33,259 bases of DNA from Bacteroidota bacterium (GTDB lineage Bacteria > Bacteroidota > Bacteroidia > Bacteroidales > CAYTAU01): positions 1 to 33,259 of the forward strand of contig JBDRPR010000197.1 in the NCBI GenBank assembly GCA_043826845.1. The letters are read 5' to 3'. Numbering within the stretch: position 1 is the first letter of the stretch; each line of letters begins with the position of its first letter. The notes under the pieces are model-generated. The model was not told the DNA's origin. It saw only the letters and a list, made by a program, of their open reading frames with translations, and did no database searches. The translations under genes were made by a program, and so were the position numbers. Shown here one piece after another: positions 3,886 to 33,257 of this stretch.

Positions 3886-3886
3886 C

Positions 3887-3898
3887 TGATACTTATCA
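3887..3898. promoter_or_regulatory. Second FNR/CRP-type box, TGAT-ACTT-ATCA
   Basis: cTGATACTTATCAt, with its centre 17 bp from the centre of the first box. Both boxes lie in the divergent intergenic region 3857-3995. Confidence 0.45.
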
Positions 3899-3932
3899 TA
3901 TCAAATTTTAAATCAGATCAATAATTCGGGTC

Positions 3933-3940
3933 TAACTTTG
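3933..3940 (+). promoter_or_regulatory. Candidate Bacteroidota -7 promoter box (TAACTTTG = TAnnTTTG) for the sulfur-relay operon
   Basis: Exact match to TAnnTTTG, 56 nt upstream of the ATG at 3996 and about 40-60 bp downstream of the two TGAT-N4-ATCA boxes. Confidence 0.35.
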
Positions 3941-3995
3941 TTCAATAATAATCAACAAGTTTTAGAAGCATAAAATTATTAAAATTATTAATATA

Positions 3996-8911: not shown

Positions 8912-9031
8912 GCATTAATTTTTTTTTCATTGCATTATTTTTACCTATTCTGTTAAGTTTTATCACTAAATAAAAAATTTATTTTTTTTGTAACTTTTAA
9001 AAATTCTCAGCGTATAAAAGCTCAGATTTTA

Positions 9032-9039
9032 TATATTTG
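9032..9039 (+). promoter_or_regulatory. Candidate -7 promoter box (TATATTTG) at the head of the catabolic cluster
   Basis: Exact TAnnTTTG match within the 384-bp AT-rich intergenic region. It lies 257 nt upstream of the ATG at 9296, which would imply a long leader. Confidence 0.3.
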
Positions 9040-9295
9040 CATATTACAATGATCTACCAGATTCACATAAAGCAATTATATCGCAATCTCAAAAACAGAG
9101 ACGGTTTTTGATCCTTACAGTCAATTCATTATTATTCTTATTTTTAAATAATTAAAATTTGTTAATTATATATCTGCTATTCGCAGAACTGTATATAATT
9201 AAGATAGTGGATTTACTAAACAAAATTCAATTTGTTTAATATCAGTGATGGCATATACAAAAGTTTTTAATTTTTAACTTTTAATTTTTAATATT

Positions 9296-11353: not shown

Positions 11354-11381
11354 AATAAGTTAAACCACAAACAATATTACT

Positions 11382-13889: not shown

Positions 13890-13935
13890 TTATAAATTTT
13901 TTTTCATAAATATAATATTTGAAAAGTAAAAAATT

Positions 13936-15243: not shown

Positions 15244-15262
15244 AAATATTTCCATAGCAAAA

Positions 15263-17728: not shown

Positions 17729-17767
17729 ACACATTTTTTAAGAAAGAATAATTTGTTATTATTTTTG

Positions 17768-17775
17768 TATATTTG
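17768..17775 (+). promoter_or_regulatory. Candidate internal -7 promoter box (TATATTTG) upstream of the AOR genes
   Basis: Exact TAnnTTTG match, 30 nt upstream of the ATG at 17805, in the 76-nt gap after the GRE gene. Confidence 0.35.
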
Positions 17776-17804
17776 ATACTTTAAATTTTTTAGAAAAAAT
17801 CTAT

Positions 17805-18344
17805 ATGCAACAAAATTCACAAGCAAAATTAATTGTCATTGATCCCGACAAATGTACAGGTTGCCATAGTTGCGAAATGGCTTGTTCTATTAGACATTTT
17901 AATGTATGCGGAACAAACTATTCGCGAATCAGGGTACATGAATTCCGGGATGTAAACACGTTTATTCCGGTGATGTGTCAGGCATGCGAAGATCCGATTT
18001 GCGTTAAAATATGCCCTGTAAATGCACGAATGAGGCTCGAAAGCGGTGCCATGGTCACTGATGATCAAAAGTGCATTGGATGTAAAGCGTGTATTCACGC
18101 ATGTCCTTTCGGAGCATCAGTTATGAATCCTGTTACAGGAAAAACCATGAGTTGTGATCTTTGTAATGATGATGAACTTGGTCCCTGGTGCGTAAAAGCA
18201 TGTACTATGCAAAAAGCGTTAAATTATATAAGAGCCAGTGATGCCGCTAAAGCACGAGGAAGAGAATGGGCAAAAAACCTGATGAAAGACTATAAAGTTC
18301 CGGGTACTGAAGAAGAGGATTTTGGATTTAGTTTTAATGTTTAA
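17805..18344 (+). CDS. Four-cluster [4Fe-4S] electron-transfer subunit (AorA-like / DmsB-type ferredoxin)
   Basis: Four Cys groups: CTGCHSCEMAC, CQACEDPICVKICP, CIGCKACIHACP and CDLC...WCVKAC. Confidence 0.8.
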   Translation: MQQNSQAKLIVIDPDKCTGCHSCEMACSIRHFNVCGTNYSRIRVHEFRDVNTFIPVMCQACEDPICVKICPVNARMRLESGAMVTDDQKCIGCKACIHACPFGASVMNPVTGKTMSCDLCNDDELGPWCVKACTMQKALNYIRASDAAKARGREWAKNLMKDYKVPGTEEEDFGFSFNV

Positions 18345-18396
18345 CCAATCAATTTCGCCTTCGATGACTTGGAGAAAAGCGAAACCCAAATATAAA

Positions 18397-18455
18397 AAAC
18401 AACAACCATTATGTTTAAAAATAAACCACAAATAAAATAGTAAGGAGATACAATT
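18397..18455 (+). promoter_or_regulatory. Leader element copy A: (AAC)n tract, mini-uORF and AGGAGA SD upstream of the AOR gene
   Basis: aacaacaacc-attatgt...aaacca...aataaaat...aggaga-ta-caattATGA. The same ordered blocks occur at 21764-21811. Confidence 0.4.
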
Positions 18456-20441
18456 ATGAATGGCTGTACAGGACAAAGACTGCGAATAAATCTGACAAAT
18501 AAGACATACGAGATAGAAAAATTATCTGTAGAGTATTATAAAAAATGGATAGGCGGCAGAGGTATGAATTCAGAAGTAGTGTATCATGAAACAAAACAAG
18601 GTATGGATCCTTTCGATCCGCAAAATCCTCTTTGTTTTGGCTCAGGGCCCTTGGTGGGTTCATTTGCTCCGCTTTCAGGAAGAACAACTATCAGCACACG
18701 ATCACCGATGACATGTTCAAATATGGGAACTGATATTCACGGTCACGGTGATACCAACATGGGCGGTGGTTGGGGGCCTATGATGAAATATGCCGGTTAT
18801 GACCAGATTATTGTTAAAGGTAAATCAGAAAAACCTGTTTATGTTTTTGTTGACGATGGTAAAATTGAATTTCGTGATGCAAGCCACTTATGGGGAATTG
18901 CAACAAAAAAAGCTACCATGAAAATTCTTGAAGAGTTGGGAGATTCTGATATCCGCGTAGCGCTGATTGGGCCTGCCGGAGAAAAACTAGTCCGGTTTGC
19001 ATGCGTGATGAATTCTTTCAGTGCTTCCGGCGGAAGAACTGGTATGGGAGCTGTAATGGGTTCAAAAAATTTGAAAGCCATTGCTGTGAGAGGAACAAAT
19101 CCTATTAAAATAGCACATCCTGAAGAGTTTATGAAAGCTTCATGGACACTGCGCGATAAAATTCATGAATCTCCTTCGGCAATACGTAGGAGAGCAGAAG
19201 GATCGCTTGATCTTTTCGACGTAGGTAATGCCATTGGTATCAATGCACATAAAAATTGTTCCACAGGCTACATGAAAGATATTGAAACTTTATATGGTGG
19301 TATGGAATGGGCTAAAGAATTTCTTTTTAGAAGAAAAGCCTGTTGGTCGTGCCCGGTAGGATGCGGAAGATATACATATATCAAAGAAGGTAAATATGCG
19401 GGATTCAACTGCGGAGGTCCTGAAATGGAAAGTCTTTGTAACCTAGGACCAAGAATTGATTCTGTTGACATAGCTGGTGTTACAGTTATGTGTGGTATTG
19501 TTAACGAACTTGGAATGGACAGCGTTTCTGCCGGAGCTGCTTTATCATGGACAATGGAAGCTTTTGAGAAAGGTTATATTACTGAAAAGGAAACAGGGGG
19601 AATAAGGCTTGAATGGGGCGATGTTGATACTTCAATTAAAGTTCTTGATATGATAGCCAAACGTGAAGGCTTTGGAGATATTCTTGCGGAAGGAAACATT
19701 CGTGTTGCTGAAAAGTTAGGGGTTGGATTGGATATTGTTCCTCATTGCCGCGGACTGGAGCATATCAGCGTTGATCCTAGAATTGCTTTAGGATTCAGTC
19801 TTGGATATGCAATGTCCACCAGAGGTTCAGATCATCTTAAAAATTATTCCTGTCTTGAATTTCCTGGCTGTGCAAAAAGCCGTTCATATCAGGTTGATGA
19901 AGTTTTAAAACCAGAAACAGCAAAAAAATTCTGGGATAACTTTCCTTCGCAAATGACCAAGATTGATACCAAACCTGAACTATGCAACTGGTCTGAAAAA
20001 AATAAATGTATCGCTGATGCTGTTGGATGTTGTTGTCAGGCAATAGGTTCATGGGGTGGTGCTGGAACATGGAAAGAGGCATATGCTCCATTACTTCGTC
20101 TTGCCACAGGTTTTGATTTTACCGATGAAGAAATATTCAAATCTGCTGAAAGAATTATTAATATTGAAAGGGCACATTGGCTAAGGGACGGAAGTGCAGT
20201 TCAGGACGACATACATATTAATAGGTACTTTGACGAACCTGTTGCAGGCGGTCCTCATAAAGGATTGAAGCTTGACAGGAAAGAATGGGCCTGGGCACAA
20301 CAGGAATATTATTCACTTAAAGAATGGGACGAGGATGGTTTTATTACTCCGCAAAAAGCTACAGAATTAGATATTCCTGAAATTATACCTGACATGAAAA
20401 AAGGGAAAGAAATTTATATGAAATGGTTGGCAAAAAAATAG
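18456..20441 (+). CDS. aor: Tungsten/molybdopterin aldehyde:ferredoxin oxidoreductase family catalytic subunit (AorB-like)
   Basis: Typical AOR N-terminus (GQRLRINLTNKTYEIEKLSVEYYKKWIGGRGMN), a Cys-containing FeS region (CWSCPVGCGR) and 661 aa length. An AAGGAG SD lies 8 nt upstream. Confidence 0.85.
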   Translation: MNGCTGQRLRINLTNKTYEIEKLSVEYYKKWIGGRGMNSEVVYHETKQGMDPFDPQNPLCFGSGPLVGSFAPLSGRTTISTRSPMTCSNMGTDIHGHGDTNMGGGWGPMMKYAGYDQIIVKGKSEKPVYVFVDDGKIEFRDASHLWGIATKKATMKILEELGDSDIRVALIGPAGEKLVRFACVMNSFSASGGRTGMGAVMGSKNLKAIAVRGTNPIKIAHPEEFMKASWTLRDKIHESPSAIRRRAEGSLDLFDVGNAIGINAHKNCSTGYMKDIETLYGGMEWAKEFLFRRKACWSCPVGCGRYTYIKEGKYAGFNCGGPEMESLCNLGPRIDSVDIAGVTVMCGIVNELGMDSVSAGAALSWTMEAFEKGYITEKETGGIRLEWGDVDTSIKVLDMIAKREGFGDILAEGNIRVAEKLGVGLDIVPHCRGLEHISVDPRIALGFSLGYAMSTRGSDHLKNYSCLEFPGCAKSRSYQVDEVLKPETAKKFWDNFPSQMTKIDTKPELCNWSEKNKCIADAVGCCCQAIGSWGGAGTWKEAYAPLLRLATGFDFTDEEIFKSAERIINIERAHWLRDGSAVQDDIHINRYFDEPVAGGPHKGLKLDRKEWAWAQQEYYSLKEWDEDGFITPQKATELDIPEIIPDMKKGKEIYMKWLAKK

Positions 20442-20448
20442 TTCAACC

Positions 20449-21720
20449 ATGAAAATTGTTATTATTGGAAACGGAATCGCCGGCAATTATATTGCTTTTT
20501 CTCTGAGGCAATTCAATTATCCATGCGACATTACTATTATATCTAATGAAAAATTTCCTGAATACGATCCATGTTCTTTGCCGTATTTTATCGGAGGCGA
20601 AATTTCAAGAGATGCAATTTTTAAAAGACAAATAAGCGACTATAAAATAAATCAAATAAATCTGATTTCCGGCAACGGCGCTGTTTCAATTAACTCCATA
20701 ACTAAAACCATAATCCTTGAAAAAGGAGACATGATCGAATACGATAAACTTATACTTGCATACGGCGGAAAACTTTTTATTCCAAATATCGAAGGAATAG
20801 ATATAAAAGGTGTTTTTAGCTGCAAACAACTACACCATGCTGACAAACTTAGTGAATCTGATGGCAAAGTAGCTGTTGTTATTGGTTCCGGCGCAATTGG
20901 AATTGAGGTTGCGGAAGCTCTGAAAAGAAAAGGATATAATGTTAGTATCATCGAACTGCTTAGTTGGATCATACCTGCTATGTTCGACAAACCAGCCGCT
21001 GAAATACTTAAAAAAGCACTTAATAATTACGGGATAAATGTTTTTACAGGTGAAAAGGTAATCAGTATTGATGGCACTAATACCGTAAAGAGTGTCACAA
21101 CTGATAAACGCACTATATCGTGCGATACGGTTGTAGTTGCAACAGGTGTAGTAACTGATAAATCTCTTGCTGAATCAGCTGGAATATCTGTGGGAAGGGC
21201 AATTATTGTAAACAACAAAATGGAAACTAATATTAATGATATTTTTGCCTGCGGAGATTGTGCTGAAGCTTTTGATGCTTTCTCAGGAGAAAAATGCAAT
21301 TATCAGTTAAAACATAATGCTATAGAACAAGCTGAGATTATTGCACAGAATATTTCCGGTAAAGATCTTAATTATGTCGGTGCTTATCCCTTTGCAAGAG
21401 CACATTTTTTTAAAACTCATTCGTCATCCTTTGGGAAAACTGTGAGTTCTTTTAAAAACATGGACGACGTTGAAGTAATTGATAGAGAAGAAAATAATGA
21501 ATATCTCAGGGTGATTCTGAAATCCGGAAAAATTGTTGGAGCACAGGCAATAGGAAAATATGCTGATAACATGGGATTATTTTTAAGTGCAATGTGGCAG
21601 AAAAATGATATTCATGAAATAAAAAATAACTGGCAGAAAATTTTACAGATTGATTCCCCCTATCCCTGGACATACCGTAAATTAGGTAATTTACTGGGAT
21701 TCGGACAAAGTATTTCGTAA
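20449..21720 (+). CDS. FAD/NAD(P)-dependent pyridine nucleotide-disulfide oxidoreductase (AorC-like; Nox/CoADR-type with Cys42)
   Basis: MKIVIIGNGIAGNYIA Rossmann motif, a second dinucleotide fold VAVVIGSGAIGIEVAEAL, and YDPCSLPYFIGGEI with the Cys at residue 42, as in NADH oxidase/CoA-disulfide reductases. It starts 7 nt after the AOR gene. Confidence 0.75.
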   Translation: MKIVIIGNGIAGNYIAFSLRQFNYPCDITIISNEKFPEYDPCSLPYFIGGEISRDAIFKRQISDYKINQINLISGNGAVSINSITKTIILEKGDMIEYDKLILAYGGKLFIPNIEGIDIKGVFSCKQLHHADKLSESDGKVAVVIGSGAIGIEVAEALKRKGYNVSIIELLSWIIPAMFDKPAAEILKKALNNYGINVFTGEKVISIDGTNTVKSVTTDKRTISCDTVVVATGVVTDKSLAESAGISVGRAIIVNNKMETNINDIFACGDCAEAFDAFSGEKCNYQLKHNAIEQAEIIAQNISGKDLNYVGAYPFARAHFFKTHSSSFGKTVSSFKNMDDVEVIDREENNEYLRVILKSGKIVGAQAIGKYADNMGLFLSAMWQKNDIHEIKNNWQKILQIDSPYPWTYRKLGNLLGFGQSIS

Positions 21721-21763
21721 ATATTGAATTTTGTAAACAGAAATAAATAGTTAATATTAATAA

Positions 21764-21811
21764 TAACAACAAACAACCTATGTCAAACCAATAAAATCAG
21801 GAGAATCAATT
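21764..21811 (+). promoter_or_regulatory. Leader element copy B: (AAC)n tract, mini-uORF and AGGAGA SD upstream of the amidohydrolase-like gene
   Basis: aacaacaaacaacc-tatgt-c-aaacca-ataaaat-c-aggaga-at-caattATGA. The 3' 17 nt are 15/17 identical to copy A. Confidence 0.4.
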
Positions 21812-22867
21812 ATGAGCAAAGCTAGCGAAGAATGGGCAAAAAGACCTTATGGCAGAGTCATCACAGAAGAAGAAATGAAAAAACGTTCTCATCCTGCATG
21901 GCCATATATTTATTTTAACCCGGGTACACCCGTTGAACCTGAAAAGGTGGAAAGAATTCTGAAAGGTGTTATTGATGTCCATATTCATGGTGCACCACTT
22001 GGAGGCTGGCTTGCCGGCAGACCAACAATAGTTGAAACATGCATCGAAGCAAGCGAAGCAGGGATGAAAGCTCTTGTTTTCAAAGATCATAATACAATGG
22101 TGAATAACTGTGCTATTATTGTACAGGATTTTCTTGAAAGGATGGCAAAAGAAAAAGCCAAAGCCGGAATTGATTTTACACCAGTAGAAGTTTATGGTGG
22201 AATTACACTGAACGAGTCTGTTGGTGGAATGAATCTGAAAGCTGTTAAAACAGCTCTTGATTATGGAAGATGTAAAGAGATATGGTTGCCTTCACTTGAT
22301 GCAAAACATCAACGTCAGGCGATGGGTGCCCAAGGCGGAATATCTGTTACCTCAGGAGCCGACGAACTCACAAAGGAGATGATAGATATACTTGATCTGC
22401 TTGCTCAGTATAATAATAACTCAAAAGGCGAAAGAGTAGCTTTATCAACTTGTCATGTTTCAAATGAAGAAAAAGTTGCTGTTTTAAAATATGTGAAGAA
22501 AAAAAACATGGATGTGAAAATTCTGCTTGATCATGTAACTCAGGAAATGACTATTTTAAATCCAGATGAAGCAAAAGAAATGATAGACTTAGGCGGATAC
22601 CTCGAATTTGCTGAATGTTCATGTGTGCCTTGGGCTGGGATGCAGGACTGGATTATTGCCTTCGATTATTCTTTTGCTCTGATTAAAGAACTTATTAAAG
22701 AAAAAGGTCCTGAACAACTCGTTTTGATTACTGATGCAGGCCAACCAGGTAATAATCCTGTGCCAGGATGGAAAATGTTTATTAAAACATTATTAGCACA
22801 AGGAGTAAGTGAATCGGAAATTAATGTGATGGCAAAAGAAATACCGGCGAAGTTAATATATGGGTAA
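21812..22867 (+). CDS. Uncharacterised amidohydrolase/TIM-barrel metal-hydrolase-fold protein
   Basis: N-terminal HxH motif (VIDVHIHGAP), later His residues (CHVSNEE, LLDHVTQE) and a late Asp strand (LVLITDAGQPG), a pattern typical of the amidohydrolase superfamily. I did not recognise the specific family. Confidence 0.5.
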   Translation: MSKASEEWAKRPYGRVITEEEMKKRSHPAWPYIYFNPGTPVEPEKVERILKGVIDVHIHGAPLGGWLAGRPTIVETCIEASEAGMKALVFKDHNTMVNNCAIIVQDFLERMAKEKAKAGIDFTPVEVYGGITLNESVGGMNLKAVKTALDYGRCKEIWLPSLDAKHQRQAMGAQGGISVTSGADELTKEMIDILDLLAQYNNNSKGERVALSTCHVSNEEKVAVLKYVKKKNMDVKILLDHVTQEMTILNPDEAKEMIDLGGYLEFAECSCVPWAGMQDWIIAFDYSFALIKELIKEKGPEQLVLITDAGQPGNNPVPGWKMFIKTLLAQGVSESEINVMAKEIPAKLIYG

Positions 22868-23762
22868 TTCTGGTTTTATTACTGAAATTAAACGTTTCGC
22901 CACTCATGATGGACCGGGTATCAGAACTGCTGTTTTTTTAAAAGGCTGTCCGCTTGATTGTAAATGGTGTTCGAATCCTGAATCAAAGGCATTAAATCCC
23001 CAACTTTATTTTATTTCAAAACGGTGCAAAAATTTCGGTAATTGTATTAGCGTGTGTCCTGAAAAAATTATTAATCCTGATGTTAATAATAAAATAAACA
23101 GAGGTAAATGCACCAATTGTATGCTTTGTGCTGAAGAATGCATCAATGGTGCTTTTCAGATAGTCGGGAAAGAGTTTTCAGCAGATGAATTATTTAAAGA
23201 AATTGTAAAAGATGTACCTTTTTATGGTAGCGATGGTGGTTTGACATTAAGTGGAGGAGAGCCATTGTTTCAATTTGAATTTTCTCTTTCGATTTTAAAA
23301 AAATGCAAAGATGCTGGAATTTCAACAGTGGTAGATACTTCAGGCTACGCTAATTCAGAAATAGTAAAAGACATTATTAAATACACAGATTTGTTTCTAT
23401 ATGATATCAAACACATGGATTCTGAAAAACACATTACAGGAACAGGTGTGAATAATAAAAATATTTTAGAAAATGCAGCTGAAATTTCTTCAAAAACAAA
23501 TATCAGAATATCATTACCATTGATTCCAGGATTCAATGATGACAAAAAAAACATCGAAGAGACAGCAAGATTTGCAAATTCTTTAAAAATAAAATTTATT
23601 GATATTAATCCTTTTCATAATTTAGGAGCCGATAAATATAATTATCTTGGAATAGCAAATCCATCTCAATTATATGAACCAATAAAGAAAGAAGATATAA
23701 TTAGAATAAAAGAAATAATTGAAAAATTCGGTATTGCAATAACTATAGGCAGAATGATGTAG
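22860..23762 (+). CDS. Glycyl-radical enzyme activating protein (radical SAM, with auxiliary ferredoxin-like clusters)
   Basis: THDGPGIRTAVFLKGCPLDCKWCSNPES (CX3CX2C). Two extra clusters (CKNFGNCISVCP, CTNCMLCAEEC). SAM-binding GGEPL. The ATG overlaps the upstream stop by 8 nt. Confidence 0.9.
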   Translation: MGNSGFITEIKRFATHDGPGIRTAVFLKGCPLDCKWCSNPESKALNPQLYFISKRCKNFGNCISVCPEKIINPDVNNKINRGKCTNCMLCAEECINGAFQIVGKEFSADELFKEIVKDVPFYGSDGGLTLSGGEPLFQFEFSLSILKKCKDAGISTVVDTSGYANSEIVKDIIKYTDLFLYDIKHMDSEKHITGTGVNNKNILENAAEISSKTNIRISLPLIPGFNDDKKNIEETARFANSLKIKFIDINPFHNLGADKYNYLGIANPSQLYEPIKKEDIIRIKEIIEKFGIAITIGRMM

Positions 23763-23790
23763 TTTAATAAGAGTTATAAATTTATTTGCG

Positions 23791-24300
23791 ATGCAATTGC
23801 AATTAATACAAAGTAAGATTTATGAAGCAAGAGGGCAAAAAGTAATGCTTGATTTTGATCTTGCTGAATTATATGAAACTGAAACAAAAAGATTAAAAGA
23901 AGCTGTAAGGCGTAATATTGAACGCTTTCCTTCTGATTTTATGTTTGAACTTACAAGAGATGAATATAATTCTCTAAGGACGCAATTTGCGACCTTAGAA
24001 AAAGGCAGGAGTAAATACAGTAAATTCAATCCTTTTGCTTTTACTAAACAAGGTGTTGCTATGCTTGCAAGTGTTTTAAACAGCTTTAAAGCCATGCAGG
24101 TAAATATTTCAATCGTGCGTGCATTTGTTATGGTACGACAATATGCCCTTACTCATAAAGATTTAACAGAAAAATTAAAGAAACTGGAAGACAAGTACAA
24201 CAGGCAATTTTCCGATGTTTATGAAGCGCTGAATTATCTGCTCGAAAAAGACAAAATATTAATTGAACAAAAGCAACGTAGACCTATAGGTTATAAATGA
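23791..24300 (+). CDS. ORF6N-domain (KilA-N-related) DNA-binding protein
   Basis: IYEARGQKVMLDFDLAELYETETKRLKEAVRRNIERFPSDFMFELT...FAFTKQGVAMLASVL matches the ORF6N domain pattern common in Bacteroidota, as I recall it. Confidence 0.75.
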   Translation: MQLQLIQSKIYEARGQKVMLDFDLAELYETETKRLKEAVRRNIERFPSDFMFELTRDEYNSLRTQFATLEKGRSKYSKFNPFAFTKQGVAMLASVLNSFKAMQVNISIVRAFVMVRQYALTHKDLTEKLKKLEDKYNRQFSDVYEALNYLLEKDKILIEQKQRRPIGYK

Positions 24301-24412
24301 AAATTGTAAAATGTATAATATTATGAGACAAATACTTGATGCAAATTTTATTAATGTACATGCAAACGATAGAGACTTGAATAAAATATATCAATAACAA
24401 ATAATAAACTTT

Positions 24413-25690
24413 ATGGCAAATTTACAAACAGAATTTTGCGGATTGAAAATAAAAAATCCGATAGGGGTTACTTCCTGCGACTTTGGTGGTCATGAGCGAC
24501 TGCTCAGAAGATGTGCTGAACAAGGCGTTGGATGGATAATTGGAAAAACCGTACATAAAATTGACGGCCCCCACCGCTGGCCCCGGCCTTATTTTTATTC
24601 GCTCAGGAGATTTGGAAACGATCTTAAAGATGCATGGGTTTGCAGTCAGATGTTTCATAATATGCCTTATGAAAAATGGTTGAACGAAGAACTTCCAAAA
24701 TGTCTGAAAACCTGTGAGGAATTCGATATGCTCTATATAGGTTCCTGTTCGGGTATTGGCGCTGATCCGGAAACATGGATTCCTTTTCTGAAAGATATGG
24801 AAGCAGCCGGCGTGAAAATGGTAGAGCTTGATACAGGTGGTCCTCATGCAACATTTGGAGCTGTGGATGCACATAAAGACGTGGGTGCTCCTTTGGCAAT
24901 GGATCCAGAAACTGCTTACAAAGTAACTAAAGCCTGTGTTGATGCTGTGAAAATCCCTATCATGTTTAAAATGACTCCACAATGTGTGAATATGGCAGGT
25001 GTCGCTTTGGCAGTTGAAAAAGCAGGTGCTGCAGCCATTTCTGCAAACAATGCTTTTTATGGTTGCTGGATTGACCATGAAACAGGAAGCTTCTTTGGTG
25101 TCCCCTCATCAATGGGAGGATTGATAGGAAGGCCATGGCAATTATTTTCATTAGCTAAAGTGATGGAAATTACAGCAACAGTTAAAATCCCTGTTCTTGG
25201 CGGTGGTGGATCATATACCTATGATGATTGCGTTAGATATTTGATGGCCGGCAGCGGAATTGCAGGATTATGCTCATCAATATATTCCAGAGGTGTTGGT
25301 GTTTTAAAAGAATGTATTGATGGGTTGAACGAATTTATGGATAAAAAAGGATATAAATCGATAAATGATTTCAAGGGTTGTGTTGTTAAAGATTTTCAAT
25401 ATCTCAGAGAGTGGAAAAGAGAAGACCCTATGGCAGAACTAACACCGGTTGTACCAAAGTTTGACCAGACTAAATGTAATATGTGCGGAATCTGTGTAAC
25501 TGTATGCCCATATGGTGCACTGACCGGAGATAAAAAAACGCACAAAATTCCGGATTTAAAAAGAGAATATTGTTTCGGGTGCGGTTGGTGTGTGGGGCAT
25601 TGCAACAGGGATGCAATTCAATGTGTTAATGCTGAAACAGGTGAAGTGATTTGGGATGGTTACGGTACGATTAAAGATTGGGTAAAATAA
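24413..25690 (+). CDS. Dihydroorotate/dihydropyrimidine dehydrogenase (PreA)-like flavoprotein with a C-terminal 2x[4Fe-4S] domain
   Basis: FCGLKIKNPIGV start and IPVLGGGGSYTYDD phosphate-binding loop of DHOD/DPD TIM-barrels. C-terminal CNMCGICVTVCPYG and CFGCGWCVGHCNRD. Confidence 0.7.
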   Translation: MANLQTEFCGLKIKNPIGVTSCDFGGHERLLRRCAEQGVGWIIGKTVHKIDGPHRWPRPYFYSLRRFGNDLKDAWVCSQMFHNMPYEKWLNEELPKCLKTCEEFDMLYIGSCSGIGADPETWIPFLKDMEAAGVKMVELDTGGPHATFGAVDAHKDVGAPLAMDPETAYKVTKACVDAVKIPIMFKMTPQCVNMAGVALAVEKAGAAAISANNAFYGCWIDHETGSFFGVPSSMGGLIGRPWQLFSLAKVMEITATVKIPVLGGGGSYTYDDCVRYLMAGSGIAGLCSSIYSRGVGVLKECIDGLNEFMDKKGYKSINDFKGCVVKDFQYLREWKREDPMAELTPVVPKFDQTKCNMCGICVTVCPYGALTGDKKTHKIPDLKREYCFGCGWCVGHCNRDAIQCVNAETGEVIWDGYGTIKDWVK

Positions 25691-25793: not shown

Positions 25794-26168
25794 CTAACGT
25801 TCTGTCTTCTTAGGAACTACTACTAAGCTATCTGCCTTAATATTCATAAGGCGAGATTGATATACTGAATCAGCAATAGCATTATAGTGTTCGCATATAG
25901 AATCAAAATAACGACGACTATTGTCAATTATCATGTTTATGTGTTCAACATCTTTAGAATCGTTACAATTATTAACCAGCGATTCGAGCAATCCTTTTAC
26001 AAACAGGTCTGTAAAATCATTCTGTGTAATATCTCCTCCTTTACAAGTAACATATAGTATTTCCGTTTTTCTTTTTTCAATACTTTTTTTGTCCCAGGTT
26101 TGGGAAAAAACACTAATGCTGATAGTTATCAATAAAACTGACAGTGTAAAGGTTAATAGATTTTTCAT
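25794..26168 (-). CDS. Small secreted protein, unknown function
   Basis: 124 aa with a signal peptide (MKNLLTFTLSVLLITISISVFSQ) and four Cys. It is the last gene of the minus-strand cluster. Confidence 0.55.
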   Translation of the reverse strand: MKNLLTFTLSVLLITISISVFSQTWDKKSIEKRKTEILYVTCKGGDITQNDFTDLFVKGLLESLVNNCNDSKDVEHINMIIDNSRRYFDSICEHYNAIADSVYQSRLMNIKADSLVVVPKKTER

Positions 26169-26244
26169 GATTATTAATATTTTAAATGAGTGATATATTT
26201 ATGTTACTAACAAAATCCGTTTGAAAGATAATATTAATAATTAG

Positions 26245-26736
26245 TTATTGCAATGCAAATTTAATAGGTATAACAAACTGAACTGGAACTGCTTGCCCGT
26301 TTTGTTTGCCAGGATTCCATCTTGGCATTGATTTAATAACCCTGATAGCTTCTTCATCACACCCACCACCTATACTTCTAATTGCTTTCACATCTGCCAG
26401 ACTTCCGTTTTTAGTTACTACAAAAGACAAATAAACTGTCCCCATAATATTGTTTTCTTTTGCTGAATCTGGATATTGGATGTTTTCAGAAATAAATTTA
26501 AAAAGTTGCTCTTCTCCCCCGGGGAAAGTAGGCATATCATCAACTATCTGGAATGGCGTGCCATAATCAGGGATAGTATCAGTTGACTCCTCATTCAAAG
26601 TAATTATTTCAAATTCACTATTCTCTTCAATGGGCTGGTTAAGAGAATTTTTTGTTGACTCATTTTCCTGAGACCAGATATTAGTCACCTGAAAGATTAA
26701 ACAAATTGCTGCTAATGTAATTGTAAGTTTTTTCAT
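26245..26736 (-). CDS. TonB C-terminal-domain protein (signal/anchor plus acidic linker plus TonB_C)
   Basis: MPTFPGGEEQLFKFISENIQYPDSAKENNIMGTVYLSFVVTKNGSLADVKAIRSIGGGCDEEAIRVIKSMPRWNPGKQNG is a typical TonB_C domain. The N-terminal hydrophobic segment is MKKLTITLAAICLIFQV. There is no Pro-rich linker. Confidence 0.8.
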   Translation of the reverse strand: MKKLTITLAAICLIFQVTNIWSQENESTKNSLNQPIEENSEFEIITLNEESTDTIPDYGTPFQIVDDMPTFPGGEEQLFKFISENIQYPDSAKENNIMGTVYLSFVVTKNGSLADVKAIRSIGGGCDEEAIRVIKSMPRWNPGKQNGQAVPVQFVIPIKFALQ

Positions 26737-26741
26737 ATATA

Positions 26742-27464
26742 TCAGTGTTTTTTTAAAAGTTTTATTAATCCGGTAATAAACATTATTACTCCAACTGCCA
26801 TAAAAAAATGATGATAGTATGAATAATATTCATAACCATTGGTTAAAAATAATGTAAGGACAATGAATAACAGTCCGGCAAGCAAAAAAATTATATTGCT
26901 GACAGGATTTTTAGTTTTTTCATTTATCGCAACCTTATTTATTGAAATTTGCTTTTTTTCTTTAATTTGTTCATTATCCGGAATATTCTGATTCAATTTT
27001 TCAGAATTGCAATGTGGGCATCTGTTTCTGTTCCTGATAAAATCAAACTGATCGATTTCGCTGCCACAAAATGCACACTCTGCTCTTCCGGCACTATCAA
27101 AATGGCAAACAGGACAATCAGTATATATTTTATTAAATGGTTTTTTACATTTAAGACAAAGTACCAGACCATCGGTATAACTTATATTTGTATTGTTAGG
27201 ATACATCCTGATTACTTTGGATTCCTCTGCTTTATTTTCATGAAGTCTTTGATTTAATTTATATGAAGTATTACACTCCGAGCATGTCAAAACAAATTCC
27301 TTATCACCATTCTGAAAAAGAGGAATAAAAAATAATGTCCCGAAATTCTGTATTGTTTGCTCTGTCATTTGAGATTCATGATCGCATTTCTGACAATATT
27401 CCTTTACGACCATGCCATTTCTGACAGGAGTTTTTACATATCGGGTTCCGAAAATAATCAGCAT
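26742..27464 (-). CDS. Membrane-anchored triple zinc-ribbon protein
   Basis: Six CxxC pairs: CQKC/CSEC, CLKC/CPVC and CAFC/CPHC. Two C-terminal TM helices (IIFLLAGLLFIVLTLFL, FFMAVGVIMFITGLIKLL). The start codon directly abuts the upstream stop codon. Confidence 0.65.
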   Translation of the reverse strand: MLIIFGTRYVKTPVRNGMVVKEYCQKCDHESQMTEQTIQNFGTLFFIPLFQNGDKEFVLTCSECNTSYKLNQRLHENKAEESKVIRMYPNNTNISYTDGLVLCLKCKKPFNKIYTDCPVCHFDSAGRAECAFCGSEIDQFDFIRNRNRCPHCNSEKLNQNIPDNEQIKEKKQISINKVAINEKTKNPVSNIIFLLAGLLFIVLTLFLTNGYEYYSYYHHFFMAVGVIMFITGLIKLLKKH

Positions 27465-28121
27465 CTATTTCTGACAATAGTTGTTATATGGATACCAAAC
27501 ATCTCTGGTAAATAAATTCCCTCTTTCTGAATAAAAATTCAGCTGAAATATCTGTTCTGTCAATACTTTATCATTACACAGATTAAGTCCGTTTTCACGA
27601 AGTGCCTGAAAAACCTCATTGGATTTTATATTATTCAGATCAGAGAATTTTGACTTAATAAAATCAAGCGTGGCTTTATCAATTGTCTGACCGTGTTTCA
27701 GAATACCGTTAACTGCGAGATACGGCTTAAGAAGCAATGGAAATTCAAGTTTCTTTCCATCCTCAGAATAAAGACCGTTTTGGTTTCCTTCATAGTCAAT
27801 CGAAAACTGAGCCTCTTCTTTATAAGGATTTTCTATAATTTCAAACTTCACCAGATTTACTGAATCTTTTGTGTCATACTCCTGAGTCAATTGCATAATT
27901 TTAAACCTGAACTGCATCACCAGAACGTCAGGCGCTTCAGGATTGTTGGATTCAATTACTGAAGTCATATAGTTTGAAGTATCTTTGTCAATATAGATTT
28001 TCAGGAATTCCTGAACCTTAGTTTCAGAGATTTTATCTGACAGGAGAGAAGATGGGTTTTCGCATGATGTAAAAACCTGCAGCAAAATAAAAAACACACT
28101 GGTATAAATTATTGATTTCAT
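27465..28121 (-). CDS. Lipoprotein, unknown function
   Basis: Lipobox-like signal MKSIIYTSVFFILLQVFTSC followed by ENPSS. 218 aa with no recognisable domain. Confidence 0.6.
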   Translation of the reverse strand: MKSIIYTSVFFILLQVFTSCENPSSLLSDKISETKVQEFLKIYIDKDTSNYMTSVIESNNPEAPDVLVMQFRFKIMQLTQEYDTKDSVNLVKFEIIENPYKEEAQFSIDYEGNQNGLYSEDGKKLEFPLLLKPYLAVNGILKHGQTIDKATLDFIKSKFSDLNNIKSNEVFQALRENGLNLCNDKVLTEQIFQLNFYSERGNLFTRDVWYPYNNYCQK

Positions 28122-28179
28122 TTAATAATTGATTTAATGCTTGTAAAAATAATTAATAAAATATAAAGAAAAAGACATT

Positions 28180-29901
28180 TCATTTTTTTCTTTTCCAGAT
28201 TTTAATATTTCCACTATAATCTGAACTGATTATATATTTTTCATTCAAACTGATACATACAGAAGTCACTTTGTCATCTTCATGTTTTCTTAATGAACAA
28301 ACCTGTTTGCATGTTTTGGAATCCAAGATACGAACACTCGGATTTCCATCAGCAGCCGTATATATATATTTCCCGTCATTGCTGAATTTTACTGAATTAA
28401 AAGATTTAAATGTAATTATTGGGATACCCCAGTCAATATATTCACTCACTTTTTTGCCTGAATTGACATCCCATACAATTATGGAAGATTTTTCCCATCC
28501 ACCGGTGACAATATATTTGCCATCCGGACTATAGTCGAGGCATTGCACCAAAGCCTGATCTCCAATTAATGTTTTACATTCCCTTGTTTTCAAATCCCAT
28601 AAAATTATATTACTGCCACCTGTAGCAATTGATTTATTATCCGGACTGAATTCAAGGCAATTAAATGAATTATTATTATAATTAGTTGATGCTTCATGCT
28701 TTTCTTCACTGCTTAAATCTTTTAGGGATTTAACAAAGTCATTAAATTTTATTCCAATTGTATCTATTGGGATAAAGTCAGGCAACGAATACAGATATAT
28801 TCTGGAATCAATTCCAATTGCAAACATTTTATTATCGAAACTGAAATCAATTGCTTTCATTAACCCAGCAAATCCAAATGAACTGACTATTTCATTTGTT
28901 ATCATATCCCAAACAATAATTGTATTAAAGTCTGATGAAATATTATCTATTTTATAGTCGTATTTCCCTGACATATGACCGCTGATAGCAGAATAATCCT
29001 TTCCGCATGCTACAAAACGCCCATCTTTACTGTATTTCACAACATTAATATTAAATTCTCTATTATATAGGGTTTTCAGGCAATCACCAGTTTCTGCATC
29101 CCAAATTTTAATTGAACCATCACCACTGCCTGAAACAAAATGTCTGTTATCCGGACAGAAATCCAGATAAACATCACCGATATCATGTGCTTTTATTGAT
29201 TTATATTCTTCGTAATCATCAGATTGACCGCTATGAATATTTTGCGAAATATGAAATGCCGAAATTATTATTAAAGAAACAGTAATAAAAATACTGGTAT
29301 ATTTCCTTTTCTTATTGCCAATTTCCGGTTCAAAATTAAAATTGCTGAAATTTCTTCTGATGTTTATTATATATCCGATTGTTGTGCCAGCCATTCCCCA
29401 GTATAGAATAATAAAAACAATCAATCCGATAATTGTATATACAGAAAAGTTCCTGTCACCGATCAGCCACCCCAATAGAATATAAATCCATGCTCCGAAA
29501 AACAGAAACAACAGAATCGAAAAAAAGAACCTGAAAATATAAGAAACGCTGAAAACAACATAGCCCAGCACATTCTTAACATAATCTGCATAAGTCATTT
29601 TCGCATAGCTTTCTCCTCTTTGTGCAGCTTCTCTTGACCATGAATTTACAGTATTAAATAAATCATTGTACCTCTCACTTTTTACCTCATTAGCATAGCT
29701 GAACAACTTGTCATAATCGGCTCTTTTCTTGTTGTCACTCAATATCTCATATGCTTCATTAATTTCAATAAACTTTCGGTGAGCATCCGGTGACTTGTTT
29801 ATATCAGGATGCAATTGCTTGGCAAGTTTTCGGAAAGAAGATTTTATCTCGTTTTTGGTCGAGGAGGTTTGGAGGTTGAGGATTTGGTAGTAGTTTTTCA
29901 A
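28180..29901 (-). CDS. J-domain (DnaJ-like) / multi-TM / WD40 beta-propeller protein
   Basis: N-terminal J domain with an HPD motif (KNYYQILNL...[31 protein letters not shown]). 3-4 hydrophobic helices (residues ~110-215). About seven WD40-like blades follow ([39 protein letters not shown]). The gene starts with TTG. Confidence 0.8.
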
Positions 29902-29934
29902 GACAATAGATTATCAGATAATTCATCTGTTTAA

Positions 29935-30831
29935 TCAATACATTGAATCAGTATAAACTTTTGGTTGATAATATTTTGCTTTAATCGGAATATTTGGGAA
30001 AACACCAAACAATAATATGGGTTGATTTGAATACTTTTGGTTTACAAATTCTTTATCAAGTCCCCAATACTGTCTTATTTCTATATATGCATTTACATAT
30101 TTATACTGAATTGTAATTTTTCCACCTAAACCCCAATAGTTCTTTCCGAGATAGCTCGATTTTGTAACAGTTTTAAAACTATTTTGAAATTCATCAGCTT
30201 CATTAATCCCCATATAATGTATTTGTAATGCTCCACCCCAAAGAAAATTATCAATCCAACTCAAACCAGCTTTAAGTTGACCAACCTGATAGCCAACATT
30301 TGCGTTAAAAGTAATAAACCGATAATTTGTATCTTCCATTTCAATATAATATGGGTTTATATCCAAATCTAGAAAAGGACACTGAAAAAAGAACAAATCC
30401 TTTGTTCTTTTGTCTTGTTTTTTAATTATATAACGATAACCTAGATGAAAAACAGCATCTTCTGCAAATGGCATTTTTGCCAAATTAAAGCTATCTACTG
30501 ATAACTTTTTAAATGGATATCCAATTTCCTTTGAATTCCATCCAATCATTAGAGGGCTAATATTAGCCAAGAACTGAGAACTCGTGCATTTTCTTCCTCT
30601 TTTAACACTTTTTAATCCCACAATAATTCCAGTTTGAACCGTAGATGCTAAACCTATATCGGAACTATTATCCAATGATACACCAGGAGTAATGCCAATC
30701 TGAAGTGAATCAGAAAATATTATTAATTCAACCGGTTCGAGATATTGAGAATGAAGCCAATTAATATTAAATAATCCGATTACTAAAAGAAGGGCGATTT
30801 TATTATTTAAATTGAAATTATATAGTTTCAT
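29935..30831 (-). CDS. Secreted protein, possibly an outer-membrane beta-barrel
   Basis: Signal peptide (KIALLLVIGLFNINWLHSQ), alternating hydrophobic/aromatic-rich strand-like segments and an aromatic C-terminus. The fold call is a guess. Confidence 0.4.
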   Translation of the reverse strand: MKLYNFNLNNKIALLLVIGLFNINWLHSQYLEPVELIIFSDSLQIGITPGVSLDNSSDIGLASTVQTGIIVGLKSVKRGRKCTSSQFLANISPLMIGWNSKEIGYPFKKLSVDSFNLAKMPFAEDAVFHLGYRYIIKKQDKRTKDLFFFQCPFLDLDINPYYIEMEDTNYRFITFNANVGYQVGQLKAGLSWIDNFLWGGALQIHYMGINEADEFQNSFKTVTKSSYLGKNYWGLGGKITIQYKYVNAYIEIRQYWGLDKEFVNQKYSNQPILLFGVFPNIPIKAKYYQPKVYTDSMY

Positions 30832-30838
30832 ATTGTAG

Positions 30839-32176
30839 TTATTTTTGCATTGGTTTTAAAAATATATCTTCTCCATTAGCTTCAAATTTACAATTCATTG
30901 TTTCAGGTTTAAGTGAATTTAAAATTTTAATTAACTCATATTGAGATTTAACATAAACTTTATAAGGAATTGTCGTTCCAATATCATCGCCATTTTGATT
31001 ACGAAAGACTCCAGTTTGTTTTGGCATAAAATATTTACAGTTTTCAATATTCGTTTTAAATTCATTAAAAATATCATTATTTTGGGTACATTCATTGCAT
31101 ATTTTCAAATTGACTTCCCATCCATTAATAATAATTTGATAAAGCTTATCTGTAAATTCTTTCATAAAATGAGGAGTATTATTTTCAATTACTTTAATAG
31201 CCTGTGATCGAGCGTACATGGCATCATTAACAGTAACAATAGTATCATAGGTTTTTTGAAAAACTAAAGTTTGAGTATATAAATTCATAGCCTTTAAGGT
31301 CACCTTGACTTCATAATTATTCAATTTATTTGGATCTTCTTGAGCAGAAATATTATCAACAATAAAACCTAAACTAGCTTGTTCTTCTGAATGGTATTTC
31401 ATACATAGTAAAAAATCCCGATAATCGTTTTTAACTGGTGATTTATATACATCTGTATGATAGCACACATTAAACGTATCAGGTTTTTCAGGAAGATTAC
31501 ACTCTTGCATTGATGGTAATTCTTTAATCTGAGCAATTCGATATTGACTACTAATAAGTTCCTCAAGAAATGAATTTCTTGCATCTTCAAATTTATTTAT
31601 TATCAGACTAGTAGTACCAGCATTAATAGGATTATATCCAACAAGAGTGTTATTATTTATCAAGTAATCAACTCTTTCTTTTATATATTCATACAATCTT
31701 CTATTGGCTTTAGCTGAATATATTTCAAAAGTATATAATGTTTTATTGCTATTAGGCTTAATGTAAGGATCCCATTCCTCCATTTTTACTAAACTTCCTG
31801 CATGATCAATTAATATATTATAAAGAAATTTTGTATTTTCAGAAGCATCATCTAAAAACAAAGATTTAATAACTTCCTTTTTAATCAATAATCTTAATGA
31901 ATCCTTATTATTATGACTTAATTTAATACTTACTGGATATTCTATCCAATTTGCCTGATTATCTTTTAAATCATTTGGAGTTGGATCATTACATTGAATA
32001 GCATTAATATTTGTATTTGAATTACTCCCATTAGTTAATTGATTTGAATCTGGTTTTTGATTATTTGTGTTATAAACATTCTGTTGTCCACTTTGAATGT
32101 TTTGACAAAAGGCAGAAAAGGTTAATAAAAACGTAATAATTGTAAAACATAAAGGCAATTGTTTTTTTGTGTTCAT
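30839..32176 (-). CDS. Secreted protein with an N/Q/S-rich linker, unknown function
   Basis: Signal peptide MNTKKQLPLCFTIITFLLTFSAFCQ, then a low-complexity segment QNIQSGQQNVYNTNNQKPDSNQLTNGSNSNTN. A GGAGGA SD lies 9 nt upstream of the ATG. No domain recognised. Confidence 0.55.
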   Translation of the reverse strand: MNTKKQLPLCFTIITFLLTFSAFCQNIQSGQQNVYNTNNQKPDSNQLTNGSNSNTNINAIQCNDPTPNDLKDNQANWIEYPVSIKLSHNNKDSLRLLIKKEVIKSLFLDDASENTKFLYNILIDHAGSLVKMEEWDPYIKPNSNKTLYTFEIYSAKANRRLYEYIKERVDYLINNNTLVGYNPINAGTTSLIINKFEDARNSFLEELISSQYRIAQIKELPSMQECNLPEKPDTFNVCYHTDVYKSPVKNDYRDFLLCMKYHSEEQASLGFIVDNISAQEDPNKLNNYEVKVTLKAMNLYTQTLVFQKTYDTIVTVNDAMYARSQAIKVIENNTPHFMKEFTDKLYQIIINGWEVNLKICNECTQNNDIFNEFKTNIENCKYFMPKQTGVFRNQNGDDIGTTIPYKVYVKSQYELIKILNSLKPETMNCKFEANGEDIFLKPMQK

Positions 32177-32222
32177 AATTTAATCCTCCAATTTTAAATT
32201 TTGATTAATAATATTTTCATTT

Positions 32223-33257
32223 CTATTTTATAGGTTTATAAATCCTAAATCCAACATCTAAAGAACTACTCTCTTTTGTCATTTCCCTGTAACTTTTAAT
32301 AGTAATGTCATCTTCACAAGATAAATACGACCCTCCTTTTATGCGCATTTTTCCACTTGAAGATGGAGATGGACTGCTAGTCCACTCAGCAACATTGCCA
32401 CTCATATCATTTAAACCAAGTTTGTTTGGCTTGTTTAAGATTCCAACTTTATTTGGTAATAAGTTTTTTAAATTTGAATTTGAGTAATAAACTGCAACTT
32501 CATCAGGATTATGAGATCCGCTAAACCTACATCCAGTGACATCTTTGTCTGATGCAAGCCACTCCCATTCATTTTCAGTTGGTAATTTTGCATTCTTGGA
32601 TTTTGCATATTCTTCAGCCCCTAAATATGTTACATGGACAACTGGAATATTTTCGAAAGATCCCTTAAGCATAAATTTGTTATTTAATGAATCAAAGGTG
32701 ATTTTGCAATTTGGATACTCAGTATGAATCCATTTTTTATAATTTATAACTGCAGTATCTCCTTTATCTTCCAAGAATTTTAAATATTGAAAATTTGTTA
32801 TCTCGTTTATAGATAAACTAAAGAATTTTGAACTATCTATAGCATCCAATTTTATTCCTTTATCAACACTTTTGTACTTAGCAGAGTACCCCTTATAATT
32901 AAATGATATTCTATCATATGCTTTTTTATCATCAGAATAGTAATCAACTTCAATACAAACACTATCTGCACTTTTTTTATCAATTTGCCAATAAAGATTT
33001 AAAAGTCTATTCACTTCATTCTTAATTTTTTCTTTTTCAGCATCTTGTTTTTCAGGCTTATTTATTTTTTCTATATTTTCACTATTAATTTTAGTAAAAG
33101 TTATACTTACATTCGGTAAGTTTGCCCGACATTCAAACTCCTTAACAGCATACTCATACAAATCAGTTGCTTTTGTTATATCCGTCTCTTTAACAACCTC
33201 AGTATTTTCAAGTGAGTACAATGATGAATATTTAATATCTATTTTATCTATTTTCAT
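32223..33257 (-). CDS. FGE-sulfatase (SUMF1/GldK-like) domain protein with an unrecognised N-terminal half
   Basis: The C-terminal half carries EITNFQYLKFL, PVVHVTYLGAEEYAKSKNAKLPTENEWEWLA, GNVAEWTSS, IKGGSY and VGFRIYK, the FGE-sulfatase domain signature. The ATG lies 2 nt from the window edge, so the true start may be upstream. Confidence 0.75.
   Translation of the reverse strand: MKIDKIDIKYSSLYSLENTEVVKETDITKATDLYEYAVKEFECRANLPNVSITFTKINSENIEKINKPEKQDAEKEKIKNEVNRLLNLYWQIDKKSADSVCIEVDYYSDDKKAYDRISFNYKGYSAKYKSVDKGIKLDAIDSSKFFSLSINEITNFQYLKFLEDKGDTAVINYKKWIHTEYPNCKITFDSLNNKFMLKGSFENIPVVHVTYLGAEEYAKSKNAKLPTENEWEWLASDKDVTGCRFSGSHNPDEVAVYYSNSNLKNLLPNKVGILNKPNKLGLNDMSGNVAEWTSSPSPSSSGKMRIKGGSYLSCEDDITIKSYREMTKESSSLDVGFRIYKPIK

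Follow-up and report, generated by a model that had tools for sequence, protein, structure and literature searches.

A J-domain protein with a predicted periplasmic WD40 propeller in a co-directional envelope gene array of an uncultured Bacteroidales genome

Membrane-anchored J proteins such as DjlA enable bacteria to aim DnaK at particular envelope-signalling proteins. How such membrane J proteins pick their time and place is, to our knowledge, not known. DjlA of Escherichia coli is a membrane-localised J protein that acts with DnaK on the cytoplasmic domains of IgaA and RcsD; together they loosen the cytoplasmic IgaA-RcsD interaction and the Rcs envelope response is switched on, an action that requires the J domain as well as the membrane location (PMC11709261). 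Here an array of eight genes, designated p1-p8 in order of transcription, is described from contig JBDRPR010000197.1 of an uncultured Bacteroidales genome. The contig was analysed over its entire length of 33,259 nucleotides, referred to below as the window. The fourth gene encodes a protein in which a J domain, predicted transmembrane (TM) helices and a WD40 propeller are combined.

The array can be described as a lineage-restricted mosaic operon of separately conserved modules (p2-p3, p4-p5-p6 and p5 with p8) with a DjlA-like, membrane-tethered DnaK recruiter at its core, a reading to which we give roughly an even chance. Judged by sequence comparison, the cluster appears to be neither a conserved eight-gene system nor organised around p1, a protein with the fold of the formylglycine-generating enzyme (FGE)-sulfatase family, which is probably an interchangeable accessory. 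The p4-p5-p6 genes form a probable conserved trio and the likeliest working unit, because they lie side by side, separated by 58 and 0 nt, and retain about 50% identity in a second locus where everything upstream has been replaced. The unit of interest is three genes, not eight.

The p4, p5 and p6 proteins

The J domain of p4 (Pfam PF00226 DnaJ, 1.2e-23, 83.4 bits against a cut-off of 27.8) covers amino acids 3-64. Its HPD motif is intact at 31-33 and is conserved in the homologue P0002, and p4 thus has the J domain with intact HPD that defines a J-domain protein. The WD40 part is also recognised by Pfam (2.5e-31, 107 bits). The J domain (1-65) is followed by a helical linker, three TM helices (approximately 111-138, 154-180 and 201-219) and the propeller (approximately 228-573), and the hydropathy plot gives segments at about 111-149, 152-180 and 201-222. 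A strongly basic loop (RR...KKRK) at 181-200 and an acidic segment behind the third helix are present both in p4 (P0001) and in P0002. The AlphaFold2 model of p4 (mean pLDDT 84.8) shows continuous helices at 104-148, 154-187 and 192-223 and then 28 strands that make up seven blades; residues 386-409 form a helical insert. Hydropathy, the positive-inside rule and the AlphaFold model concur in predicting three TM helices between J domain and propeller. A J domain can meet DnaK solely in the cytoplasm. Because the J domain would be cytoplasmic and the number of helices is odd, the propeller is predicted to be periplasmic.

In a Foldseek comparison the modelled propeller matched the WD40 propeller of PkwA (5yzv, TMt 0.92) and G-beta (about 0.80), and as modelled it is a canonical WD40 propeller, not a TolB-like one. 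PkwA and G-beta have the same 7-bladed fold, but their propellers are cytoplasmic and either kinase-fused or free-standing, whereas that of p4 follows three TM helices and is predicted to be extracytoplasmic.

Like DjlA, p4 would be a class-III J protein tethered to the inner membrane, with a cytoplasmic HPD-containing J domain and without the client-binding domains of DnaJ. The two differ in that DjlA carries its J domain at the C-terminus, has a TerB-like domain and a single TM helix, and barely extends into the periplasm, while p4 has an N-terminal J domain, three helices and a predicted periplasmic WD40 propeller of 350 amino acids. Membership of the DjlA family is rejected by this reversed architecture and by a score of 18.6 bits against a cut-off of 162 for NF006948. 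DnaJ proteins of type I/II are characterised by a G/F region, a zinc-finger domain and C-terminal client-binding domains. Assignment of p4 to this type (DnaJ, CbpA) is rejected as well: TIGR02349 gives 83.6 bits against 377, the alignment is confined to the J region at amino acids 3-80, and neither DnaJ_C nor DnaJ_CXXCXGXG is matched in Pfam.

The N-terminal 189 amino acids of p4 are 35% identical to polytopic, Bacteroidota-type J-domain membrane proteins of about 400 amino acids. Metagenomic representatives of these (P0083, P0086, P0104 and P0105) have the J domain, a 'REAAQR...Y..F' linker and the first membrane helices in common with p4, but they continue as polytopic proteins and are without a WD40 domain. 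Because of this N-terminal match p4 looks like a J-membrane N-terminal module fused to a WD40 propeller.

The full-length architecture of J domain, TM helices and WD40 propeller was detected in one other protein, P0002 (51% identity), among 5.8 billion clustered proteins. The word-indexed search scored 8000 candidates, was flooded by WD40 and DnaJ words and returned this one true homologue. A full-length HMMER search of 1.84e9 representatives ranked giant multi-WD40 proteins by summed score and is uninformative on the architecture, so that the rarity is to be read with a caveat on sensitivity. A scan of 241 million JGI metagenome records with a family-specific motif from the linker and TM region of p4 and P0002 gave no match. 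In the full-text literature, of which the coverage is incomplete, no J-domain protein with a periplasmic WD40 domain or beta-propeller was found described. p4 is a new architectural variant among membrane-anchored J proteins, and a J protein with a large periplasmic propeller would be an obvious candidate for connecting Hsp70 in the cytoplasm with the periplasm. The weight of this is limited by the number of examples, which are two, both metagenomic and from uncultured Bacteroidales, and by the fluidity of the surrounding genes.

Of the eight proteins, the lipoprotein p5 recurs most widely. Its family consists of 11 clusters among the 5.8e9 proteins. The cysteine of the lipobox (...FTSC) is nearly invariant in 11 homologues and a C-terminal PYNNYC motif is conserved. 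No Pfam domain was found, OmpA-like included. The AlphaFold2 model (pLDDT 72.5) is a beta-sandwich with two helices, for which a fold search against PDB gave generic beta-sandwiches alone (E>=0.012, TM<0.5). The start of p6 follows the stop of p5 at 0 nt. Six CxxC pairs, read from the sequence, make up a triple zinc ribbon in p6, and Zn_ribbon_15 is matched at 2e-6 with a score exactly at the cut-off. With hydrophobic helices at 185-212 and 218-239, p6 is predicted to sit in the inner membrane by a C-terminal helical hairpin, with its three zinc ribbons in the cytoplasm.

A mechanism can be proposed by analogy with DjlA. The HPD-containing J domain of p4 would recruit DnaK-ATP to a membrane site on the cytoplasmic side and cause DnaK to clamp onto a client close to the membrane. 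The foremost candidate for this client, or for an adaptor, is p6, whose zinc ribbons place about 180 residues in the cytoplasm on an anchor of two helices. In the periplasm the propeller would dock partners, and p5 is the first candidate because it is encoded immediately downstream of p4 in both known loci. Periplasmic events and the cytoplasmic action of DnaK would thereby be tied to one place. The remaining products p1, p2, p3, p7 and p8 would be accessory proteins of the envelope that vary with the lineage and are swapped between loci, possibly with ligand-binding or structural roles. The recruitment of DnaK, the contacts of p4 with p5 and with p6 and any output are thus putative.

A more far-reaching version, which we regard as a long shot, is that p4-p5-p6 constitute an undescribed transmembrane coupling device. 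A periplasmic propeller that docks the lipoprotein would be joined through three helices to the J domain, so that periplasmic binding gates the action of the DnaK ATPase on the zinc-ribbon protein, with lectin-fold and secreted proteins as exchangeable accessories. If true, this would be an Hsp70-driven switch for envelope signalling or assembly.

Related loci and the extent of the unit

The only other locus with the p4 architecture, L001, is the contig that contains P0002. The p4 homologue is there followed by a p5 homologue (50% identity) and by the first 50 amino acids of a p6 homologue (44%), the contig ending 150 nt into p6. The 8.7 kb upstream of the p4 homologue hold eight different genes, for secreted or OmpA-type proteins, and neither an FGE protein nor p2 was found there. 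Among these genes are an OmpA-domain protein, three large secreted paralogues, a 279-amino-acid weak relative of p3, a lipoprotein and a DUF3592-like membrane protein.

Homologues of p5 were traced into 11 distinct contexts. A p4 gene lies immediately upstream of p5 in two of these, the window and L001. A p8 homologue abuts p5 in L005 and L010 (53% and 63% identity), while in the window p8 is two genes away. In L003/L008 adjacent homologues of p3 (36%) and p2 (26%) are found 8.5 kb from a p5 homologue of 72% identity. In L006 and L011/L012 the gene next to p5 is for a Fib_succ_major protein, which in L003 lies 4.4 kb off, and a cytoplasmic Janus/Ocnus-like protein is encoded in the neighbourhood of p5 in L003 and L010. 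In the remaining contexts the genes by p5 are unrelated. Where relatives of the cluster genes have a name attached, it is always that of metagenome-assembled genomes labelled 'uncultured Bacteroidales'.

The eight genes might form no functional unit. They would then be envelope genes without relation to one another, fast-evolving and lineage-specific, that happen to lie on one strand, and the synteny of p4-p5-p6 would merely be inherited from a common ancestor. The extreme variability of the p5 neighbourhoods is consistent with this, as are the four of eight proteins without a detectable family, the shift in composition along the cluster and the restriction of all relatives to one narrow group. 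However, p4, p5 and p6 are adjacent with gaps of 0-58 nt at approximately 50% identity although their surroundings have been replaced, and p2-p3 and p5-p8 recur as neighbours in rearranged order. Because the triad and these two pairs stay neighbours amid rearrangement, selection for linkage is favoured. The lack of any unit is rather unlikely, but it deserves to be taken seriously.

The earlier note on this DNA had suggested that all eight products build one trans-envelope machine or sensor in which the ATPase of DnaK is coupled to periplasmic or surface parts. In such a model the FGE protein would be the ligand sensor, p3 the outer-membrane barrel and the TonB_C protein p7 the contact to the outer membrane. 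The genes are tightly spaced and co-directional without a predicted internal terminator, and the span of compartments holds, from the cytoplasm through the inner membrane to the periplasm (p4, p5 and p6, and the secreted p2, p3, p7 and p8). The single machine around the J/WD40 and FGE proteins does not hold. Co-conservation of these two, which the note had offered for checking, is not found, as the sole other J-TM-WD40 locus has no FGE gene and p1 and p7 recur in no related locus. L001 keeps just p4-p5-p6, behind different upstream genes. Further, the barrel label of p3 is unconfirmed, p7 is without a TonB anchor, and ExbBD are missing. A looser theme of a C-type-lectin-fold protein, a barrel-like secreted protein and a zinc-ribbon membrane protein near p5 in L003, L006 and L011 would fit a recurring machine. 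The look-alikes are not homologous between loci by BLAST, and hhalign of the p1 FGE domain against Fib_succ_major gives a probability of 0.9%. Little weight is given to the theme, since they are not detectably homologous and proteins of these kinds abound in Bacteroidales. A single eight-protein machine is improbable, and the coupling of the DnaK ATPase to periplasmic parts that was proposed for it is pure inference.

Several observations weigh against the mosaic operon with a DnaK-recruiting core. The conserved core p4-p5-p6 is based on two J-TM-WD40 loci. In nine of the 11 contexts p5 is found without p4, L009 included, and therefore p5 does not need p4; the p5 copy of L009 is 84% identical to that of L001, yet no J/WD40 gene lies upstream of it. 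That p5 looks like a hub is in part due to ascertainment, as p5 alone could be followed into numerous contigs, of which many are just 1-3 kb long. The first hydrophobic segment of p4, 39 residues long, could be a hairpin, which would place the propeller in the cytoplasm, and the proteins most closely related to the WD40 region are cytoplasmic and have several domains. The hairpin is disfavoured because P0002 has three glutamates in the second half of this segment. There is no dnaK or grpE gene nearby, and the contacts between proteins in the model are all inferred. Finally, p1 may be incomplete, and extra genes beyond the end of the contig could alter the picture.

Three side observations concern the related loci. 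The secreted paralogues of L001 (1289-7216; 573, 512 and 544 amino acids) have no known domain; two are 36% identical, the third is related by an hhalign probability of 72%, and the OmpA-domain protein precedes them. L003 (10684-12337) has two 87%-identical copies of a Janus/Ocnus (phosphohistidine-phosphatase-like) protein of 126 amino acids. They stand on either side of a membrane protein that has a zinc ribbon at its C-terminus, immediately downstream of the p5 homologue, and in L010 (83-469) the same Ocnus-like gene is upstream of p5. In L005 two neighbouring genes (1728-4215 and 6908-9258) have a 96%-identical N-terminal segment of 204 amino acids, either a recent duplication or an assembly artefact. 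Three related secreted proteins are encoded nearby, one with a phage-tail-collar-like 'LPAHQHS' motif.

The FGE-sulfatase-fold protein and the other secreted products

Pfam PF03781 (FGE-sulfatase, 1.7e-26) is matched by p1 at amino acids 141-339. In the visible part neither a signal peptide nor a lipobox was seen, though the N-terminus may be truncated. Catalysis by FGE/SUMF1 depends on a cysteine pair (CxxxxC) directly after GGS[YW], in human FGE Cys336 and Cys341. The sequence of p1 reads KGGSYLSCEDDITIKSY, with a single cysteine after GGSY, and a formylglycine-generating enzyme is ruled out by the missing pair. The sulfoxide synthases EgtB and SenA, in which an N-terminal DinB-like iron-binding domain is combined with an FGE fold, are ruled out by scores far below the cut-offs (EgtB TIGR03440 48.4 bits against 360, SenA 28.5 against 420), the alignment being confined to the C-terminal fold region. 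GldK (29.2 bits against 350) and GldJ (23.3 against 458) are equally far from their NCBIfam cut-offs. Because it lacks the FGE cysteine pair and is far below the cut-offs for GldK, GldJ and EgtB, p1 is read as a putative non-enzymatic binding module whose fold is that of C-type lectins. The best PDB match is 5aoh_A (2.9e-9), followed by SUMF2, EgtB, TvpA and PorK; the FGE chains are matched weakly (6muj 2.7e-4, 2q17 6.1e-4). The entry 5aoh_A is deposited as 'Spore coat protein CotH', an odd name for an FGE-sulfatase-like fold, and may be mislabelled or multidomain. No close relatives of p1 were found in JGI metagenome contigs.

Targets of a diversity-generating retroelement (DGR) are recognised by a 3' variable repeat in a C-type-lectin-fold gene, a near-identical template repeat and a reverse transcriptase. 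A DGR target is rejected for p1, as its 3' end is in no repeat of >=20 nt, tandem repeats are absent and there is no reverse transcriptase among the open reading frames (ORFs) of the window. The Fib_succ_major/DUF1566 lipoproteins ('CLec2' group) that adjoin p5 homologues are placed, like FGE-sulfatase, in the ligand-binding class of C-type-lectin-fold proteins, and a DGR survey lists both FGE-sulfatase and Fib_succ_major as targets with that fold (PMC5758913). They differ from p1 in having no sequence similarity to it, and no DGR is nearby.

Signal-peptide-like N-termini are found in p2, p3, p7 and p8. An N/Q-rich stretch lies at about 25-75 of p2, and no match was obtained in Pfam (a permissive scan included), NCBIfam, PADLOC, PHROGs or a PDB profile search. 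A word search recovered p2 alone, and its one homologue, 26% identical over about 420 amino acids and adjoining the p3 homologue in L003/L008, came from tblastn. By hhalign p2 is not related to the three large paralogues of L001. For p3 no family, outer-membrane-protein or PDB match was found even at E<=5-10, permissive Pfam scans included. An alternating hydrophobic/polar, strand-like pattern is conserved in an alignment of three relatives, and p3 is possibly an outer-membrane beta-barrel, a type of protein marked by a closed barrel and a beta-signal at the C-terminus. Besides the homologue in L003/L008, the 279-amino-acid protein of L001 is related to it weakly (hhalign probability 59%, E 9.5e-5). 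No family match to p8 was found in Pfam or NCBIfam.

The TonB_C domain of p7 (PF03544, 1.6e-20) covers amino acids 85-162. TIGR01352 is matched at 44.7 bits against a cut-off of 27.1, while the TonB system model gives 14.6 against 448. The N-terminus resembles a cleavable signal peptide and not a TonB membrane anchor, and no ExbB or ExbD is encoded in the window. Because p7 is secreted and has neither an anchor nor ExbBD, with solely the domain model reached, a true TonB energy transducer is excluded, for which a TonB_C domain, a Pro-rich spacer and an N-terminal anchor that operates together with ExbB/ExbD are characteristic.

Comparison of the cluster with Pfam, NCBIfam, PADLOC, PHROGs, PDB and Rfam matched no known system. 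The earlier note had recognised none, in line with the empty PADLOC result and with the GldK, GldJ, EgtB, DjlA and TonB models far below their cut-offs. A phage origin is unsupported, as the PHROGs matches are at domain level alone; relatives of p5 and p3 were not found in viral contigs.

Conflict systems that depend on nucleoside triphosphates (NTP) have a core of a MoxR AAA+ protein with vWA, or of a STAND or GTPase component, plus an effector. FGS (FGE-sulfatase) domains are effector modules in their vWA-MoxR/iSTAND ternary and GTPase-centred systems, and a DnaJ fusion is present in one HSP70/GrpE-linked subtype (PMC7159879). The array could be the 3' part of such a conflict or defence system, with FGE and WD40 sensors and with NTPase and effector genes off the contig upstream. 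It would fit that FGS modules and a DnaJ fusion are known in these systems, that the closest WD40 relatives of p4 include TIR-, caspase- and kinase-fused proteins, and that the contig ends at the FGE gene. However, PADLOC was empty, no NTPase, vWA or effector domain is found in the 7.5 kb of the cluster, and the core domains are absent from the rest of the window too. Most products are secreted or lipoproteins rather than cytoplasmic, the region upstream of p4 in L001 encodes secreted or OmpA-type proteins alone, and neither template and variable repeats of DGR type nor a reverse transcriptase is present. A conflict system is very improbable and, on the DNA up to the end of the contig, is rejected as a candidate.

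Two envelope apparatuses offer partial likenesses. With PorK/GldK and GldJ, p1 has in common the FGE-sulfatase fold without the catalytic cysteine pair and the setting in a Bacteroidota envelope context; it differs in its scores far below the equivalog cut-offs, in having no visible lipoprotein signal and in the lack of gldLMN/porLMN neighbours, GldL, GldM and GldN being absent from the window. The joint encoding of a periplasmic beta-propeller, a lipoprotein and a TonB_C/TolA-C-like protein recalls TolB, Pal and TolA as an analogy, but the propeller of p4 is of WD40 and not TolB type, p5 is not OmpA-like, TolQ and TolR are missing and p7 is secreted and not anchored; membership of Tol-Pal is rejected on the first three of these. 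That the array is a divergent member of the type IX secretion system (T9SS)/gliding ring, of Tol-Pal or of a TonB system is therefore hardly credible, even though the FGE fold is common to PorK and GldK and the host has T9SS cargo.

Gene array and setting in the window

The features of the window are given in Table 1. The eight minus-strand ORFs at 25794-33257 have gaps of 46, 7, 33, 58, 0, 5 and 76 nt, exactly as the earlier note had listed them. Its calls of FGE-sulfatase, DnaJ with WD40, triple zinc ribbon with two TM helices, TonB_C, lipoprotein and signal peptides are borne out by Pfam, hydropathy and sequence, whereas its count of five proteins without a nameable domain is reduced to four without a Pfam domain (p2, p3, p5 and p8). 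All eight ORFs are genuine genes, since each has a Pfam domain or a homologue elsewhere, and the identities of the homologues range from 26% for p2 to 72% for p5. On the opposite strand there are just short ORFs nested inside p1-p8.

Table 1. Features of the window, with the genes of the array in order of transcription
Feature	Position	Strand	Description
p1	32223-33257	-	344 amino acids visible; FGE-sulfatase-fold protein
p2	30839-32176	-	445 amino acids; secreted, N/Q-rich linker
p3	29935-30831	-	298 amino acids; secreted
p4	28180-29901	-	573 amino acids, TTG start; J domain, three predicted TM helices, WD40
p5	27465-28121	-	218 amino acids; lipoprotein
p6	26742-27464	-	240 amino acids; zinc ribbons and two TM helices
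p7	26245-26736	-	163 amino acids; secreted TonB_C-domain protein
p8	25794-26168	-	124 amino acids; small secreted protein, three cysteines
ORF6N gene	23791-24300	+	ORF6N (KilA-N-like) DNA-binding protein (9e-35)
Metabolic block	9296-25690	+	One long co-directional block
CotH-domain gene	31-3033	+	1000 amino acids; CotH kinase domain, right-handed beta-helix, lamin-tail domain and T9SS C-terminal sorting domain (Por_Secre_tail)

The genes are probably co-transcribed. No terminator-like sites were predicted between them. A scan for consensus promoters gave 52 sites against 46.8 expected, which is background, with a sigma-70-type consensus that is ill-suited to Bacteroidota. Rfam families, tRNAs and tandem repeats were not found in the cluster region. 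The cluster runs to the end of the contig, where p1 starts 2 nt from the edge with an ATG that is the first complete codon. For this reason the true N-terminus of p1 may be missing, and the cluster may exceed eight genes. Exact-sequence look-ups of p4 and p2, aimed at extending the contig, matched no record.

The GC content of the cluster is 30.3% compared with 35.0% for the remainder of the window. The GC content of third codon positions splits the cluster in two, with 0.15-0.21 in p1-p3 (0.21 in p1) and 0.26-0.34 in p4-p8.

The cluster converges with the plus-strand block, which makes up the remainder of the window and is one of anaerobic metabolism, including DsrE/DsrC-like and cytochrome c biogenesis proteins. 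It encodes an ADP-forming acyl-CoA synthetase, a fused POR-like 2-oxoacid:ferredoxin oxidoreductase, an aminotransferase, a glycyl-radical enzyme (PFL-like, 1.2e-161) with its activase, an aldehyde:ferredoxin oxidoreductase, a ferredoxin, an NAD(P)H oxidoreductase and a DUF6282 protein. By its gene content the block looks like a pathway for fermentation of amino acids or aryl acids under anaerobic conditions. The CotH-domain gene at the other end of the window is predicted to encode a secreted CotH-type kinase. Such a gene content is indicative of Bacteroidota. Within the metabolic operon the ORF6N gene lies between the genes for a radical-SAM activase and a DHODH-like Fe-S flavoprotein, and may either have been left behind by a mobile element or act as a local regulator.

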